A DNA stretch of 16,327 bases from a virus (lineage: Duplodnaviria; Heunggongvirae; Uroviricota; Caudoviricetes), in IMG/VR virus record IMGVR_UViG_2645728010_000001. One strand, 5' to 3'. Both the position numbers and the translations under genes were made by a program. The stretch's first letter is position 1. Each line of letters starts with the position of its first letter. Below the pieces are notes generated by a model that was not told the origin of the DNA, made no database searches, and was given only the letters and a program-made list of their open reading frames with translations. Below, in pieces: positions 6,093-14,024 of the stretch.

Positions 6093-6371
6093 ATGGCACG
6101 CAACGTAAAATATTACAATTCTGATAATTCGCCCGTTCTTGTCTGCACGCACGAGCGGTATTCTCACGCATTCAAGTCTGAATGGTTCCAACACCCTCCA
6201 TGCACTGAAGAGCAGGCTGAATGGATAATTCAGTGTTACCGCAGGCGCGGATACGAGGTTAAGAAAGCCCTTAGTCTCGACTACCGTCACTGGATAATCT
6301 CAGTCAGATTGCCTTACTCCGAACGCCCACCGCGTCCGTCCCGTACATTCCAGCAACGCATCTGGAGGTAA
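6093..6371 (+). CDS. hypothetical protein (92 aa), possibly N-terminal part of a split ydfU-like gene
   Basis: ATG with GGAGAAAA RBS; stop TAA lies 1 nt before the GTG of the next ORF (GGAGG between). Confidence 0.45.
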   Translation: MARNVKYYNSDNSPVLVCTHERYSHAFKSEWFQHPPCTEEQAEWIIQCYRRRGYEVKKALSLDYRHWIISVRLPYSERPPRPSRTFQQRIWR

Positions 6372-6372
6372 C

Positions 6373-7023
6373 GTGCGGGTATTACTTCGACCTGTTCTGG
6401 TACCGGAACTTGGGCTGGTGGTCGTTAAGCCGGGCCGTGAATCCATGCCGGTATTCCACAATACCCGGGTATCCTGGTGGGCGGTCCGCAATCAGCTGGC
6501 GGACGCGCTACCGGAAGCGGTATTACGTCGCTCGCTGGGATTACCAGCGGAAAAAATCTGCTCGGTGTACCGCGAAAGCGACATCGTACCGGGAGAGCAG
6601 ACCGCCACCAGCATATTGAAACAGCGCACAAAAAATCTTGCACCGTTGCCTCACGCCCACCAGCAACAAAACCCATCACAGGAAAAGACGGTGGTAAGCA
6701 TCACCGTTGATCCAGAGTCTCCGGAATCTTTCATGAAGCTGCCTAAACGTCACCGGTGGGTTAAGGAGAAATACACACGCTGGGTTAAGACACAGCCGTG
6801 TGCTTGCTGCGGTATGCCAGCCGACGATCCGCATCATCTGATTGGTCACGGGCAGGGCGGAATGGGAACCAAAGCACATGATCTCTTTGTTTTGCCTTTG
6901 TGCAGAAAGCATCACGACGAGTTGCATACGGATACCGTGGCATTTGAAGAGAAGTATGGCTCCCAACTGGAGCTGATTTTTCGATTTATCGATCGCGCGC
7001 TGGCAATTGGTGTGCTGGCCTAA
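6373..7023 (+). CDS. DUF968-type protein with C-terminal Cys/His (HNH-like) motif (ydfU-like)
   Basis: 216 aa; C-terminal CACCG...DPHH...H...CRKHHDELH cluster; immediately upstream of Q as ydfU is in Qin. Confidence 0.55.
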
Positions 7024-7573: not shown

Positions 7574-8098
7574 TTATTGTTTAACCCATAATAGTTCATT
7601 GACATTGAATCCCAACTTTTGAGCGGTACGCACATAGTCTGCTTTTACATTATCTGGAATAGTTTGGGTCCTTGCCAGAATCCATAGGTATTCTCTGTTC
7701 GGACCACTGACAAGAGCATACTTATACTCATCATCCAGTTTGATTACATTATAGCCACCATAGAAGGGGCCAAAAAACGAAACTTTCAACGCTGCAGTTT
7801 TAGTATCTCCAGTAAAGTATGCTTTACCTTCGCTCTCGCTCCATTTGTTTTTCGTTGGATCGTATCCACGGTTAAGTACGCGAATCCCTCCGTCGTTCCG
7901 TTTTTCATAAGTAGCGCTGACCTGTTCCAGACCACGTTCGAACCAGTTCTCGAGGCGAGCTATTTCATACCATTTTCCGAGGTAGCGGTTGGCGTCAAAA
8001 TTTGTAATCGGCTGCACACCTTTAGGTGGTGTCGGAGCCTTACATGCTATAAGAGTGAAAGAGAGTGCAATGCCAGTCAACACAGGCCATAACTTCAT
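7574..8098 (-). CDS. outer-membrane lipocalin lipoprotein, Blc family (diverged)
   Basis: 174 aa; signal peptide with lipobox LIAC; lipocalin motifs NFDANRYLGKWYEIARLENWFERGLE, FGPFYGGYNVI, YLWILART; AGGA RBS. Confidence 0.85.
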   Translation of the reverse strand: MKLWPVLTGIALSFTLIACKAPTPPKGVQPITNFDANRYLGKWYEIARLENWFERGLEQVSATYEKRNDGGIRVLNRGYDPTKNKWSESEGKAYFTGDTKTAALKVSFFGPFYGGYNVIKLDDEYKYALVSGPNREYLWILARTQTIPDNVKADYVRTAQKLGFNVNELLWVKQ

Positions 8099-8290
8099 AA
8101 TAAATCCTGTACTTTTGATAGTTGAGAGTAAGTATGAAAGATAGATGAGTACGACCGATCACTTAAAGAACTTTCCTACTATATTAGGAATAGTCAATAA
8201 CAGAAAAATTGTCAGTGATGAAGCCAGAAAGGCAATTTAGTCCGTGCACTACAAAGTTTATGTGTTAATGAATTAGTCAAGGGGGAGGAA

Positions 8291-8440
8291 ATGATAAAAA
8301 AACCTGTGATTGGGATCAGCGGTTGTTTGGGCGGTTCTGCTGTTCGTTTTGATGGTGGTCACAAAAGAGATGACTTTTTAATGGACAAATTAGTGGAATG
8401 GGTAACATTCAGACCAGTATGTCCGGAAATGGCTATATGA
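8291..8440 (+). pseudogene. 5' fragment of a DUF523-type gene truncated by IS3
   Basis: Strong RBS GGGGGAGG; MIKKPVIGISGCLGGSAVRFDGGHK resembles DUF523 N-termini; ORF stops in a TGA supplied by the IS3 terminal repeat; 49 aa where about 150 is expected. Confidence 0.45.
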
Positions 8441-8467
8441 TCCTACCCACGTAATATGGACACAGGC

Positions 8468-9334
8468 CTAAGCGAGGTTCTGGTTTTCAAATTGTTCCGG
8501 ACTGAGGCCGCCACACCAACTGTGCCGCCGCCACCGATTGTAATCACATTCGATATAATTAAACACCGTTGCCCGCATTATTTCCCGGCTGATAAAGTGT
8601 TCTCCATGGATACATTCCACTTTCAGCGAATGAAAGAAGCTTTCCACGCAGGCATTATCGTAGCAGCAACCTTTTGCGCTCATACTTCCACGCAGATTAT
8701 GCCGCTTCAGTTGCGCCTGATAATCTGCTGAACAGTACTGGCCTCCACGGTCCGTGTGAACGATAACGTTCCGGGGCCTCTTACGCCGCCACAGCGCCAT
8801 CTGCAGGGCATCGCAGGCCAGTTGCGCCGTCATGCGTGGCGACATTGACCAGCCAATAACGGCACGTGACCACAGGTCAATGACCACTGCCAGATACAGC
8901 CAGCCTTCATCTGTACGTAAGTACGTGATGTCTCCTGCCCACTTCTGGTTCGGGCCACTGGCGTAAAAATCCTGCTCCAACAGATTTTCTGACACAGGCA
9001 GGCCGTGTGCGCGGTAGCTGACCGGGCTGAACTTCCGGGAGGCCTTTGCCCTCAGTCCCTGACGGCGCAGGCTTGCCGCCACGGTTTTTACGTTAAAGGG
9101 GTAACCCTGAGCACGCAGTTCATCCGTCAGGCGTGGGGCACCGTAACGCTGTTTTGACCGGGTAAAAGCCGCGAGGACAACGCTGTCGCAGTGTTGGCGG
9201 AACTGCTGACGCGTGCTTATCCTTGTCCGCCGCTGACACCACGTATACCAGCCGCTGCGGGCCACCCGGAGCACGCGGCACATTGCTTTGATGCTGAACT
9301 CAGCCTGATGTTTTTCAATAAAGACATACTTCAT
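8468..9334 (-). CDS. insF: IS3 transposase OrfB (DDE integrase-like)
   Basis: 288 aa; matches recalled IS3 OrfB; overlaps orfA in ATGA arrangement. Confidence 0.9.
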
Positions 9335-9630
9335 TTCAGGCGCTTCGCGAAGTATGTCGCGGCCTTTTGGAGGATAGCCAGCTCTTCATCCCGTTCTGCC
9401 AGCTGGCGTTTGAGACGTGCAATCTCGGTAGACATCTCCAGTTCACGTTCAGAAGACGTCTGCTGATTTTGCTGTTTACTGCGCCAGTTGTAGAGTTGTG
9501 ATTCATACAGGCTGAGTTCACGGGCTGCGGCAGTAACACCGATGCGTTCAGCAAGCTTCAGGGCTTCACTGCGAAATTCAGGCGAATGCTGTTTACGGGG
9601 TTTTTTACTGGTTGATACTGTTTTTGTCAT
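9331..9630 (-). CDS. insE: IS3 transposase OrfA (HTH)
   Basis: 99 aa from ATG ([31 protein letters not shown]...); the ORF track's longer start is an upstream GTG. Confidence 0.9.
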
Positions 9631-9663
9631 GTGAGTCACCTCTGACTGAGAGTTTACTCACTT

Positions 9664-11592
9664 AACAGCGCACAGGCGGCAGCGGCCTCGCAGACTGCAT
9701 CGGCAAACTCCGCGACAGCAGCTAAAAAATCAGAAAACAACGCGAAAAATAGCGAGACAGCAGCAAAGACGAGCGAAACCAACGCAAAGTCCAGCCAGGC
9801 GGCAGCGAAAACAAGCGAAACGAATGCCAAAACCAGTGAAACTGCGGCGAAAAGCAGTCAGGCTGCAGCAGCCGAAAGCGAGAGTGCGGCAGCCGGTTCT
9901 GCGACTTCAGCAGCTGGATCAGCAACTGCTGCAGCTAACAGCCAGAAAGCAGCGAAGACGAGCGAAACTAACGCAAAGTCCAGCCAGACGGCAGCGAAGA
10001 CCAGCGAAACGAATGCCAAAGCCAGCGAAACTGCGGCGAAAAACAGTCAGGATGCAGCGGCCCAAAGCGAGAGTGCCGCAGCTGGTTCTGCAAGTGCGGC
10101 GGCTTCTTCTGCCACTGCATCAGCCAACAGTCAAAAAGCTGCAAAAACCAGTGAAACCAACGCAAAGGCGAGCGAGACTGCGGCGGCTAACTCGGCGAAA
10201 GCATCCGCTGCAAGCCAGACGGCTGCAAAAGCAAGTGAAGACGCAGCCAGAGAGTATGCAAGCCAGGCTGCGGAGCCGTATAAACAAGTTTTGCAGCCGC
10301 TTCCCGATGTGTGGATACCGTTTAACGATTCACTGGATATGCTTGCTGGCTTTTCGCCTGGTTATAAGCAAATAACTGTAGGTGATGATGTTATTAAAAT
10401 GCCATCCGATAAGGTTGTTAGCTTCAAACGCGCATCAGGTGCAACATACATTAATAAATCAGGAGTATTAACCGTTGCTGAAGTTGACGAACCGCGATTT
10501 GAACGAGAAGGTTTGCTGATTGAAGGACAAAGAACCAACTATCATCTTAATTCACTTACGCCATCTAAGTGGGGAGCTACAACAAGTGTAACTATAACAG
10601 AAAGTGGTGTTGATGAGTTTGGCTTTACTTATGGGCGGTTTCAAATAAAGGACGAAAAAATTGGGACAAATACGACAATGAATATCGCTGCGGTTTCAGG
10701 AGGAAGAGGTGTCGATGTTACTGGAACTGAAAAGTATGTTACAACATCATGTCGTGTAAAAAGCGATAGTGCTAATATACAATGTCGTATAAGATTTGAA
10801 AGATATGACGGGTCCGCATATTTTTATCTGGCAGATGCATATCTTAATATAACAGATATGTCCATTAGGAAAACGGGAGGAGGGGCTGCAAGAATAACCG
10901 CCCGAGCGGAGAAAGAATCTAATGGATGGATTTATTTCGAGGTTACATATCAATCTGAAGCTATTGATAATATGGTTGGCTCTCAGATCCAAATTGCTCC
11001 ACCTGTTTCACCTGGAACTTATTTGGGCGGGGAATATTTGGATGTTACGACACCACAATTTGAAGGCGGCTCATGCGCATCATCTTTTATCATTTCCGAT
11101 ACAGTTGCATCAACGCGAGCAAGCGATATTGTTACATTGCCTTGTAAAAATAACATGGCCAGCAAACCTTTAACCTGCATGGTTGAAGTGAATAAAAATT
11201 GGTCTATAGCACCAAATTCCGCGCCTAGAATTTATGATATAACAGGATTTAAAACAAAAGACGACGCTTTTGTTTTTGCATTCAGAAATACAGCAGGTAG
11301 TGTAGGAACTCCATATGTTCAATTTGGTAATCCAATATCATTTCCACCTGGAAATTACCCAAGAAAGATTATCGCTGTATATAGAATAAAAAGCGATGGC
11401 AAGTTTCAGGCTGGCTGCAATGGGGTTTTATCAACACCAGCATCAACAACGTGGAAGAGTGTTAGTGGTGCTACAGGTATAAGGATTGGAGGCCAGACTA
11501 CAGCCGGCTTACGTCATTTATTTGGTTATATCAGGAATTTTAGAATATGGCATAAAGAATTAACCGATGCGCAAATGGGAGAGATAATATAA
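9664..11592 (+). pseudogene. side tail fibre gene stf, 5'-truncated at the IS3 junction
   Basis: Open frame without start codon begins at the IS3 boundary; N-part is repetitive (KTSETNAKASETAAK-type repeats), then EPYKQVLQPLPDVWIPFNDSLDM junction and a low-GC C-terminal domain ending GLRHLFGYIRNFRIWHKELTDAQMGEII. Confidence 0.8.
9766..10200 (+). repeat. tandem 189-bp (63-codon) repeats with 45-bp sub-repeats inside stf
   Basis: Near-identical units starting about 9766, 9955 and 10144; boundaries approximate. Confidence 0.6.
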
Positions 11593-11873
11593 TGCGAGAT
11601 TTAATTATCAAATTCACAGACAAGGCCGACTTTTCGGCCTTTATGAAGAGTGCTGGCTATTATGATGACGAGTCGATGCAGGATGATATTCTTATTGACG
11701 TGATAGGTAACGTGTACAAAGAAACCGGAGAACTTACTGAAGATGGCGAGCCGGTATGTGTTAAGGAAGACGGATATTTTGTAAACGTGCGCATCATTAA
11801 TGATGCAAAAAAATCGTCAATATTCGATAAATACGCGGTTGTTGTTGAGCATCAACTTCGTGGCTGGATGTGA
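11592..11873 (+). CDS. hypothetical acidic 93-aa protein (possible tail-fibre chaperone or accessory)
   Basis: ATG overlaps stf stop (TAATG); no recognised family. Confidence 0.5.
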   Translation: MRDLIIKFTDKADFSAFMKSAGYYDDESMQDDILIDVIGNVYKETGELTEDGEPVCVKEDGYFVNVRIINDAKKSSIFDKYAVVVEHQLRGWM

Positions 11874-11882
11874 GGCAGGAAA

Positions 11883-12587
11883 ATGGCTACATCGACAGTA
11901 ATTCCAGGAGATATCACCAAGCTAAAGGGGGATGTCAGTAAAGCTAAGGAAGATATTTCATCAATTAGCAGAAAAGTATCAACGCTTCAGACTGAGATGA
12001 CCAGTGCAAAGCAGGATATCAGCTCCAGATACACAAAAACTGAAGTTGATAATAAGCTGAAAAACAAAGTGGAAGTGAACGATCTGGAAAGTGGTCGTTA
12101 TGGCGGAGATTTTTATCCACTGACAGGTCGTGAAGCGTTTTATTTATGGAATTTGGCCACGACTACAGCGGCGGCAAACCTTTATCTTAATCCTGACCCT
12201 GCAATTTCGTCTGTGCTGCGGTCAACATCGTCTATCCGCTATAAACATTCAGTAGAGACAATAGATTCAGAGCACGCCGATCTCATTTTCAGGATGCGCC
12301 CTGTGTGGTACAGGTCGCAATGCGAAAATGACAGGCGTGACTGGGGATTCTACGGATTGATTGCCGAGGAAGTAGGAGAAATTGCTCCTCAGTTTGTACA
12401 CTGGCGACCAGCTAACGAAGATGATGCTCCTGAAGCTATTTCCAGCAATGGCCTTGTTGCCGAAGGTGTAATGTACGAACGTCTGGTTGTTCCACTGATT
12501 CACCATATCCAGAAACTGACTGAAAGAGTTGATGAACTTGAGTCAGAATTAAAGTTGTTATTAACTTCCCGAAGCGATATTAGATAA
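11883..12587 (+). CDS. short fibre-like protein: N-terminal coiled coil plus C-terminal intramolecular-chaperone (peptidase S74-like) domain
   Basis: 234 aa; motifs SSIRYKHSVETID, GLIAEEVGEIAPQFV, NGLVAEGVMYERLVVPLIHHIQKLTERVDELESEL resemble the autocleaving C-terminal chaperone domain of phage fibres and tailspikes. Confidence 0.55.
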   Translation: MATSTVIPGDITKLKGDVSKAKEDISSISRKVSTLQTEMTSAKQDISSRYTKTEVDNKLKNKVEVNDLESGRYGGDFYPLTGREAFYLWNLATTTAAANLYLNPDPAISSVLRSTSSIRYKHSVETIDSEHADLIFRMRPVWYRSQCENDRRDWGFYGLIAEEVGEIAPQFVHWRPANEDDAPEAISSNGLVAEGVMYERLVVPLIHHIQKLTERVDELESELKLLLTSRSDIR

Positions 12588-12597
12588 AGGAGGAGTA

Positions 12598-12891
12598 ATG
12601 GATATAACACCTTTTCTTCATGCGCTTTGTGCTGTGGCTGCGCAGACACTGGTTGGTCTTTTTACCGGAAACTGGGCTTATGGGGCGATAGCTGGTTGTA
12701 CGTTCTTCATTGCGCGTGAACACACCCAGGCAGAATATCGCTGGATTGAAATGTTCGGGCATGGCAAGCGGATTAACATGCCGTGGTGGGGCGGTTTTGA
12801 TCCGCGTGTTTGGGATGTGGCAAGCCTGATGGATTTTGCTGTGCCGGTGGTGGCGTGTCTGCTGATCTGGCTGTTGGTTAATCGTGGGTGA
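12598..12891 (+). CDS. small membrane protein (97 aa, about 2-3 TM segments), function unknown
   Basis: Strong RBS AAGGAGG; hydrophobic segments AVAAQTLVGLFTGNWAYGAIAGCTFFIA and FAVPVVACLLIWLLV. Confidence 0.55.
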   Translation: MDITPFLHALCAVAAQTLVGLFTGNWAYGAIAGCTFFIAREHTQAEYRWIEMFGHGKRINMPWWGGFDPRVWDVASLMDFAVPVVACLLIWLLVNRG

Positions 12892-12901
12892 AAAAAGGTG
12901 A

Positions 12902-13021
12902 GCTGTATATGCAACGGAGGAAGAAACCCCGTTGCTGGAAGCCAGGAAAAAGTATCGGGTGTTGCTGAACCGTGTTGATACGTCAACTGCACAGGATATT
13001 GAATGGCCAGCACTGCCGTAG
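12902..13021 (+). pseudogene. orphan 3' end of a tail fibre assembly gene (tfa remnant)
   Basis: Start-less open frame ...[31 protein letters not shown] resembles the conserved Tfa C-terminus, just upstream of pin where tfa lies in Rac/Qin. Confidence 0.45.
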
Positions 13022-13118: not shown

Positions 13119-13709
13119 TTATATGTCAGGTGTCTGAAGTTTTGCTTTGGCTCTTAAAATGGTTTGCCGCGAGGTTTTGAATTCCCGGGCAATGGCACTT
13201 ATACTTACACCTGACTTAATCCGTTCGAATACCACCTGTTTCTGTTCTTCATTTAACACAGGTGGTCGACCAAAACGTTTCCCTGCGCCCCGGGCTCTTA
13301 CTATCCCGGAATGAGTGCGTTCAAGTAAAAGGTCTCGTTCAAATTCAGCGACTGCTGAAATTACTTGCATCATCATTTTTCCTGTTGGACTGGTCAGGTC
13401 AATGCCCCCCAATGCTAAGCAATGCACTCTGATACCTGTTTCGGTCAGTTGTTCCACTGTTTTCCTGATATCCATTGCATTACAACCAAGGCGATCCAAT
13501 TTTGTCACAATCAATTGATCACCACATTTCAGGCGAGCAAGCAACCGGTTAAAACCAGGACGCTCACTGGTTGCTGCTGAGCCGCTAATGTGTTCTTCGA
13601 TTATTTGCTGAGGTTTGATTTTAAAACCTGCACTTTCGATTTCCCGGCGTTGATTTTCGGTGGTCTGATCCAGCGTTGATATCCGACAGTAAGCAAAAAT
13701 TCGAGACAT
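13119..13709 (-). CDS. pin: serine-recombinase DNA invertase (Pin/Hin/Gin/Cin family)
   Basis: 196 aa; [12 protein letters not shown]...with catalytic-Ser context (CRIST), resolvase fold motifs and C-terminal HTH ([18 protein letters not shown]). Confidence 0.9.
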
Positions 13710-14024
13710 AGTGAGACTCTATACGAAATTGGTGTTCATATCATAATGCATCTCAGAAAATAATTTTGATTATTTTTGTGCATATTTGTATGTACACGTT
13801 CGAAAATAAACGAATGCGTATGCAACCCCGTAATTTTGGTGAGACCCAAAATCGATTTTGTGAAAAATGGCTTTAACTCGGTTTGTTTTTCGAGTTCCAG
13901 GCGGACTCAAGGAAGAAGAATAGTGTTGCGTGTTATTTTAACCAGATTTCAAGTTGTTTGGTCGTGGAAAAGTGGAGCAAAATGTTGTTAAAGTGGAAAA
14001 TGATAAAAAAGTAAGTTAATTATA

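Follow-up and report, generated by a model that had tools for sequence, protein, structure and literature searches.

What lies at the sharp change of base composition inside the side tail fiber gene (stf) of a defective Escherichia coli prophage: the edge of a horizontally exchanged module, a switch operated by a neighboring invertase, or a by-product of the encoded amino acids? Here, we investigated a stretch of 16,327 nucleotides from a tailed virus of the class Caudoviricetes (IMG/VR record IMGVR_UViG_2645728010_000001), hereafter the window, in which the stf reading frame spans positions 9664–11592. Bases 9600–12900 are 100% identical to E. coli BL21(DE3), to REL606-type strains, and to further derivatives of E. 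coli B. In NC_012971.2, this DNA belongs to the defective Qin prophage and adjoins pinQ, ydfK, and ydfJ. In all likelihood, the break marks the point, at 10292–10294, where a lambdoid shaft has been joined by ordinary mosaicism to an A+T-rich tip cassette in circulation among unrelated coliphages. See Table 1 for the coordinates of all features.

A sharp compositional break inside stf

We performed a two-segment likelihood scan of guanine-plus-cytosine (GC) content over the stf reading frame, with a support interval of 2 log units. The best estimate of the change-point is position 10279, with a log-likelihood ratio of 25.4 and a GC content of 0.570 on the left and 0.396 on the right. None of 1,000 codon shuffles reached this ratio (mean 2.6, maximum 11.2). 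Therefore, the composition of the gene is not uniform, and the abrupt drop reported in an earlier note on this DNA is confirmed by calculation. Synonymous positions change as well: GC at third codon positions (GC3) is 0.486 before the break and 0.266 after it (Fisher p = 5e-8), and the corresponding values for four-fold degenerate sites are 0.444 and 0.254 (p = 5e-4).

Both peptides quoted in the earlier note are present in the 9664–11592 frame, with EPYKQVLQPLPDVWIPF starting at 10273 and GYIRNFRIWHKELTDAQ at the C-terminus. Its description of a repetitive N-terminal part also holds, as a 189-nt tandem unit is found in 2.3 copies at 9751–10185 (83% matches). This shaft is typical of lambdoid Stf proteins. 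From 9751 to 10200 its coding strand has an extreme excess of A over T, with an AT skew of up to 0.66, reflecting repeats rich in GCA, AAA, GAA, ACG, and AGC codons.

The low-GC tract extends past 11592 through the next 1.5 genes, to ~12150. In the window, the T5-like phage IrisVonRoten, the Drexlerviridae phage XY3, and the Nonagvirus phage JenP1, the module to the right of the break has a GC content of 0.396–0.403, though the GC content upstream ranges from 0.43 to 0.56. Because module GC is steady whatever lies upstream in these closer relatives, the break is conspicuous only on the Ala-rich lambdoid shaft, and a T5-like carrier shows almost no break (0.426 versus 0.400). The break probably arises because the cassette retains the low GC3 of its gene pool (~0.26–0.31, as in T5-like and other virulent coliphages) next to a shaft that is Ala-codon-rich and lambdoid in composition. 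A constant 40% GC was rejected as a general rule for the module, as the distant rV5-like version has a GC content of 0.478.

The break coincides with a homology boundary between phage families

DNA matches to phage 21 and lambda-like phages start at 10292, and for many E. coli prophages similarity is likewise confined to the sequence from 10292 on. The T5-like phages IrisVonRoten, KS_S14, mar004NP2, SPLA5b, and PMBT29 match over 10294–11138. At the protein level, the module (from QPLPDVWIPF onward) follows N-terminal parts of at least six unrelated architectures: lambdoid Stf (PF08400), Nonagvirus JenP1, Tequintavirus (T5-like), Drexlerviridae XY3, a P2-type fiber (PF12571 plus PF03406), and the 1479-amino-acid fiber of the rV5-like phage FFH2. 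The proposal that a module exchanged horizontally begins at the break is therefore well founded. However, the break is not the junction of constant and variable regions that it had been taken for. It is the boundary between the shaft and a conserved adapter, and allelic variation begins at ~10543, ~250 nt later.

A search restricted to the junction matched 1734 genomes, and one restricted to the module matched 1481; a count of 5192 from the first search was inflated by 65 nt of IS3 in the query and is not used. The full-length C-terminal domain of the window, or the whole module, is present in only 74 of 5426 genomes and represents a rarer allele. The K-12 alleles could not be used for mapping the left junction because all that they have in common with the window is the 3′ end of tfa and the region around pin. 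A blastn comparison of K-12 StfR and StfQ with the window's shaft or module gave no similarity at E ≤ 1e-8.

Within the module, a tract of 470 nt (10537–11006) is 98% identical, with 9 mismatches, to the virulent T5-like phage IrisVonRoten (MZ501075.1, ~6277–6746); on the prophage side, it is carried by Qin of both E. coli B and C. The adapter and linker flanking this tract differ from IrisVonRoten at roughly every third-codon position, a pattern that marks the tract as a product of recent recombination. From 11485 onward the sequence is of lambdoid type again, at 89–94% identity to PhiR63_1 and to a prophage of strain S7. Further mosaic breakpoints at ~10543 and ~11139 emerge from the conservation of 40 alleles, windowed DNA identities, and the pattern of genome matches. 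Such a patchwork would be the expected outcome of repeated homologous recombination in short conserved linkers. We propose that exchange most likely proceeds by homologous recombination within the short conserved sequences on either side of each domain, namely the adapter, the TPQ.EGG..ASSFII...TRASD linker, and the RNFRIWHK end, and not by site-specific inversion.

IrisVonRoten was isolated in Basel on K-12. K-12 lacks the module, and therefore the phage did not acquire the 470-nt tract from its isolation host. Several oddly labeled or short GenBank phage records also carry the module, at up to 90% DNA identity, and are probably mislabeled or contaminated: OR848352.1 and OR849447.1 ("Listeria phage LM 4-14-1"), OR850771.1 ("Salmonella phage S.Inf 5-2"), and MG065654.1 ("Campylobacter phage C15").

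We also considered whether the break could be a by-product of amino acid composition in a vertically inherited gene, in which an Ala-rich coiled shaft simply gives way to an Asn/Ile/Lys/Tyr-rich beta domain with no exchange at all. GC at second codon positions (GC2; from 0.68 to 0.47, owing to the Ala/Ser/Thr/Lys/Glu repeats of the shaft) and GC at first positions (from 0.53 to 0.46) both fall across the break, which fits this explanation, as does the nearly absent break in the T5-like carrier. However, we regard it as very improbable, since GC3 and four-fold-site GC drop sharply too, cross-family DNA homology starts abruptly at 10292–10294, a virulent T5-like phage carries the 470-nt tract at 98% identity, and at least six unrelated N-termini carry the same module.

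Anatomy and fold of the exchanged module

The limits of the segments in Table 1 were set from a conservation profile of 40 alleles together with windowed DNA identities and the genome-match pattern. The adapter is the most conserved part of the module, with pairwise identities of 0.70–0.89 among the 40 alleles, and is common to all carrier phage families. Approximately 1400 E. coli genomes match the adapter only and not the rest of the module. From this conservation, the adapter is a likely substrate for homologous recombination and a candidate docking or trimerization segment.

The central domain belongs to the NCBIfam family NF048003 (GTA_spike_fiber), with a score of 52.2 bits against a cut-off of 36 (E = 1e-13); the match covers residues 286–487 and profile positions 1–181 of 182. 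The C-terminal domain ends in a conserved IRIGGQTT..RHLFG.IRNFRIWHK.LTD. It had been described as concanavalin/LamG-like, and this is correct at the level of the predicted fold but not of Pfam membership. The match to PF13385 (Laminin_G_3) scores 24.0 bits, below the gathering cut-off of 27.6 (E = 4.8e-5), and is partial, covering profile positions 82–149 of 151 and residues 568–638 of the 643-residue translation. A sequence search of solved structures with the module gave no matches at E ≤ 1. Fold assignment therefore relied on predicted models, which show a two-sheet jelly-roll beta-sandwich superposing on LG/LNS, pentraxin, or CBM domains.

Binding modules without catalytic activity head the list of structural matches: CBM40, LG/LNS, pentraxin, galectin, and the receptor-binding domains of clostridial neurotoxins. 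This argues against the C-terminal beta-sandwiches being a polysaccharide depolymerase, such as a ConA-like glucanase or lyase, that digests a surface glycan rather than only binding it. Furthermore, no glycoside-hydrolase or lyase family was found by Pfam or NCBIfam, and the IrisVonRoten homolog is described as galectin-like and related fibers as non-enzymatic (PMC11990801). We consider enzymatic activity unlikely.

Table 1. Features of the window around the stf compositional break, in order of position
Feature	Position	Strand	Basis or remarks
IS3 copy	8438..9664 (left edge approximate)	-	InsE and InsF reading frames at 8468-9639; RefSeq; strain C comparison
stf pseudogene remnant	9664..11592	+	Residues ~151-792 of a 792-amino-acid lambdoid side tail fiber; virion-attachment N-terminal domain deleted
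GC-rich (0.56), Ala/Ser/Thr/Lys/Glu-rich repetitive shaft	9664..10293	+	Composition, translation
GC change-point support interval	10272..10371	.	Cross-family DNA homology boundary inside it, at 10292-10294
ATAAAC-AA-GTTTTG motif	10280..10293	.	Codons for YKQVL; chance 4+2+4 palindrome, not a recombination site
Conserved 83-amino-acid adapter (QPLPDVWIPFNDSLDM...PRFEREGLLIEGQRTNY; QPLPDVWIPF...LLIEGQRTN)	10294..10542	+	40-allele profile, genome matches
Central beta-sandwich, GTA head-spike-fiber type (galectin/ConA-like), allele-variable	10543..11139	+	
Conserved linker TPQ.EGG..ASSFII..TRASD	~11038-11170	+	Allele conservation
C-terminal LamG/pentraxin/CBM40-like beta-sandwich	11140..11589	+	Most allele-specific part
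93-amino-acid protein	11592..11873	+	phrog_1361, E = 1.3e-44; start overlaps stf stop (TAATG)
Second (distal) fiber, 234 amino acids	11883..12587	+	Conserved N-terminal 20-25 residues, short variable body, C-terminal Peptidase_S74 chaperone
97-amino-acid hydrophobic protein	12598..12891	+	phrog_1443, no Pfam matches, GC 0.52; last gene of the cassette, lambdoid carriers only
tfa 3′ remnant, 112 nt	12910..13021	+	RefSeq; blastn against K-12 Qin and Rac; right boundary of the cassette
pinQ serine recombinase	13119..13709	-	No site ties pinQ to the junction

The junction does not resemble an inversion site

A third explanation is that the junction is the crossover site of a (formerly) invertible fiber segment run by the adjacent PinQ, like the Mu G, P1 C, and e14 P segments. 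A serine invertase gene does lie 1.5 kb downstream, there is a short palindrome at the junction, and the crossover sites of Mu and e14 do fall inside tail fiber genes at the constant/variable junction. PinQ is only ~38% identical to Gin-type invertases; nevertheless, in K-12 it reportedly acts in trans at TTGGTTTGGGAGAAGG repeats to invert the P segment of e14, blocking adsorption of phage T2 (PMC12529663).

We built a half-site matrix from sites read in Mu gix (TTATCCAAAACC-TC-GGTTTACAGGAA) and K-12 e14 pix. The hix/gix-like motif that had been noted at the junction is indeed present, but it behaves as a chance palindrome, scoring -10.9 bits versus +30 to +35 for the real sites and ranking 499 among 16302 window positions. 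The best-scoring site anywhere in the window reaches 12.8 bits. Real gix and pix sites have AAACC and GGTTT around a 2-bp core, so that AAAC and GTTT are 4 bp apart; this gap is 2 bp in the window motif, and its half-sites are therefore mis-spaced by 2 bp. The pattern AAACNNGTTT has a single copy in the window where 0.45 would be expected by chance, and at least one copy turned up in 72 of 200 shuffles. Sister alleles do not keep the motif: PhiR63_1 and HannyBb have AAATATGTCTTA in its place, and XY3 has CAAGGACTTATT. The motif therefore fails the check named in the earlier note, conservation among stf alleles.

No partner site was observed either, in agreement with the doubt already expressed in the earlier note about a functional inversion pair. 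The window has no match to AAACCNNGGTTT with up to one mismatch, and the published PinQ target repeat is absent from it with up to three mismatches (target from PMC12529663). Among the inverted repeats of the window, none involves 10270–10300 or links the junction to the pin region. The cassette genes are all co-oriented on the plus strand, with no oppositely oriented alternative stf/tfa set. Additionally, pinQ faces the cassette, whereas gin and pinE face away from theirs. A tblastn search with an approximate Gin query re-found only Mu-like phages. With the matrix scan and the core-pattern, inverted-repeat, and PinQ-target searches all negative, we rejected the junction as an inversion site and regard this explanation as wholly improbable.

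A palindrome, CCCAAAATCGATTTTG, is present in the pinQ promoter region at 13842–13867. It scores only 0.8 bits on the gix/pix matrix and is possibly an operator or a relic site.

The BL21 copy of stf is a truncated remnant

RefSeq labels the reading frame at 9664–11592 a pseudogene, [quoted passage not shown] which abuts an IS3 copy; the earlier note had missed this truncation. A comparison with the phrog_1419 profile (tail protein, ~793 amino acids) gives E = 1.9e-299, with only positions 150–793 of 793 present and the first ~150 deleted. The homologous locus of E. coli strain C has an intact 792-amino-acid stf (protein WP_112843490.1) with lom and a J fragment upstream. Relative to strain C, the B lineage has lost a stretch of 2514 bp that runs from the final 31 bp of IS3 through J′ and lom to nt 449 of stf, and the first 150 codons of stf are gone from the window copy. 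The N-terminal prophage tail-fiber domain (PF08400) is accordingly absent from it; the domain is present in the intact strain C allele and in P0003 and P0004, whose C-termini are 96–100% identical to the window.

The IS3 copy is without its final 31 bp at one end, terminal inverted repeat included (window 9640–9670), and this end is intact in strain C. Because the IS3 end itself is missing, the deletion is not a canonical IS-adjacent one, and we rejected such an IS3-mediated event as the cause of the truncation. The gene is dead in BL21 because the 2.5-kb deletion beside IS3 took its first 150 codons, leaving a truncated remnant that could at most serve as a recombination donor.

Just before IS3, at 7574–8440, the prophage carries two cargo genes, one for a lipocalin (Blc-like), on the minus strand, and a truncated one for a 2-thiouracil desulfurase (YbgA-like). 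This cargo was not seen in the portion of K-12 Qin examined (~8.7 kb of 20.5 kb).

The cassette encodes a second fiber

From the homology pattern, the exchanged unit spans 10294–12909 and comprises the adapter, the two lectin-type domains, the 93-amino-acid protein, and the second fiber. A protein of 92–93 amino acids lies directly downstream of the module in every carrier examined, including lambdoid, T5-like, Drexlerviridae, Nonagvirus, and rV5-like phages and other prophages. It is a candidate assembly factor or adaptor. A second fiber gene, whose product ends in a Peptidase_S74 intramolecular chaperone, follows in most carriers; the first 20–25 residues are conserved, and the total length varies from 234 to 574 amino acids, as shown by an alignment of the distal fibers of PhiR63_1, HannyBb, IrisVonRoten (gp24), XY3, and JenP1. 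The distal fiber of the window is a member of Pfam PF13884 (Peptidase_S74), with 27.5 bits against a cut-off of 22 over residues 116–172.

At 234 amino acids, this distal fiber is minimal, with a coiled N-terminus and an S74 chaperone; its nearest type is a 245-amino-acid protein of the Drexlerviridae phage XY3. The corresponding proteins have 343–346 amino acids in sister lambdoid phages, and that of IrisVonRoten has 574 amino acids and is T-shaped. The small protein encoded after the second fiber in lambdoid carriers is a membrane protein, and the 97-amino-acid hydrophobic protein of the window could be a lysogenic-conversion or exclusion factor.

The tfa remnant is separated from stf by three other genes and does not form a classical Stf-Tfa pair with it. 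The cassette would have replaced the classical stf C-terminus together with tfa, of which only the last 112 nt remain. From 12910 rightward, the window shows 98.8–98.9% identity to both Qin and Rac of K-12, and the similarity extends past pinQ/pinR. This near-identity from the tfa remnant onward suggests a recently homogenized right arm common to both prophages.

What would the cassette do in intact relatives? The earlier note had read the part of stf beyond the break as a receptor-binding module. However, by analogy the stf product is probably a proximal lateral fiber with lectin-like side domains rather than the sole receptor-binding tip, as a distal fiber is encoded two genes downstream. 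The Gp22 protein of IrisVonRoten is modeled as a proximal fiber with a C-terminal galectin-like domain to which distal Gp24 is attached, and the receptor-binding domains of such fibers often pass horizontally (PMC11990801). An earlier BASEL paper describes the lateral-fiber loci of these siphoviruses as hypervariable past the 5′ end of their first gene (PMC8594841). The RcGTA head spike fiber, which defines the NCBIfam domain, binds capsular polysaccharide (PMC10218006). In intact relatives, the two lectin-like domains would contact surface glycans (O-antigen, lipopolysaccharide, or capsule), and the adapter or the 93-amino-acid protein would help to assemble or dock the distal fiber.

Several points weigh against the reading of the locus as a lambdoid shaft with an exchanged tip cassette. 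The GC2 drop means that part of the GC break is amino acid composition, and the rV5-like version limits the claim that the module has a composition of its own to closer relatives. The structure models are monomers of a probable trimer and have moderate confidence (pLDDT, the predicted local distance difference test, of 68.8 and 75), and the adapter is poorly modeled, with low pLDDT in the monomer. We infer glycan binding, adapter docking, and the role of the 93-amino-acid protein from homology, fold, and synteny. Additionally, the data fit transfer between temperate and virulent phages in either direction.

Comparison with known systems

The closest system is IrisVonRoten (Bas32, Tequintavirus), in which Gp22 has the same adapter and central lectin-like domain, at ~75% amino acid identity over the module (Humolli et al. 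2025, PMC11990801). The gene order is also the same: a fiber, a 92-amino-acid protein (Gp23), and a distal fiber with an S74 chaperone (Gp24). However, IrisVonRoten has a T5-type N-terminal anchor and shaft where those of the window are lambdoid, another C-terminal LamG allele, and the longer, T-shaped distal fiber described above; its gene is functional, unlike the truncated copy of the window.

Lambda Stf/Tfa and the K-12 pairs StfR-TfaR (Rac) and StfQ-TfaQ (Qin) resemble the window in the Qin position beside pinQ, ydfK, and ydfJ. Intact window-type alleles also have the PF08400 N-terminus and the J-lom-stf order of these systems. They differ in that the tip and Tfa are replaced in the window by the adapter, lectin domains, 93-amino-acid protein, and second fiber, and K-12 has no detectable DNA similarity to the window left of 12910.

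Din-family segments (Mu G/Gin, P1 C/Cin, and e14 P/PinE, PinQ or PinR) likewise have a fiber-gene junction that joins alternative C-termini and a serine invertase nearby. The window, in contrast, has no 26-bp crossover site (two inverted 12-bp half-sites, ..AAACC, with a 2-bp core), no inverted pair, and no alternative inverted set. Exchange in the Din-family segments is inversion within one genome; that proposed for the window is homologous recombination between genomes.

Fiber genes were reportedly found to have been transferred horizontally among P2, Mu, lambda, and T4, in work by Haggard-Ljungquist et al. in 1992 and by Sandmeier in 1994. In T-even phages, the distal fiber loci swap adhesin modules between conserved motifs, according to Tetart et al. 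1998 as cited in PMC12529663. The window is similar in that short conserved linkers bracket variable receptor-binding domains and modules cross the divide between temperate and virulent phages. It differs in having two lectin-type beta-sandwiches on a proximal fiber instead of a gp37/gp38-type tip. Finally, the central domain scores above the family cut-off of the RcGTA head spike fiber (NF048003), a protein that binds capsular polysaccharide (PMC10218006), but the latter is a head spike and not a tail fiber, only one domain is matched, and overall identity is low.

Implications for tail fiber evolution

The kind of feature described here is already known. The family is present in phrog_1419, in NCBIfam, and in the BASEL analyses, and the exact sequence is annotated in dozens of finished genomes of laboratory strains. 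Current understanding of tail fiber evolution is unchanged, and the result will not surprise specialists. What we add is a breakpoint map at nucleotide level, in which the GC break corresponds to the start of the conserved adapter and not of the variable region, together with the near-identical IrisVonRoten tract and the structure of the B-lineage deletion. A false lead is also removed, as there is no inversion switch at the junction.

A broader and more tentative idea is that the adapter and the 92–93-amino-acid protein may form a universal plug-and-socket that allows branched tips to be exchanged among at least six coliphage groups, with the adapter and its partner acting as both docking interface and recombination linker. 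The groups would be lambdoid, T5-like, T1-like, Nonagvirus, rV5-like, and P2-like phages, and the exchanged parts, again speculatively, the lectin domains plus a dockable distal fiber. Defective prophages (Qin, in E. coli B and C) might then be tip reservoirs for virulent phages, as suggested by the 98%-identical tract in common with IrisVonRoten.

The breakpoints at 10292–10294, ~10543, and ~11139 are natural splice points that could guide the engineering of fiber chimeras with new host ranges. More generally, the locus offers a worked example of a prophage fiber gene whose shaft, adapter, and two lectin-like domains have had separate histories, in which a defective prophage of BL21, the protein-expression strain in widest use, and a virulent T5-like phage have a near-identical domain in common.

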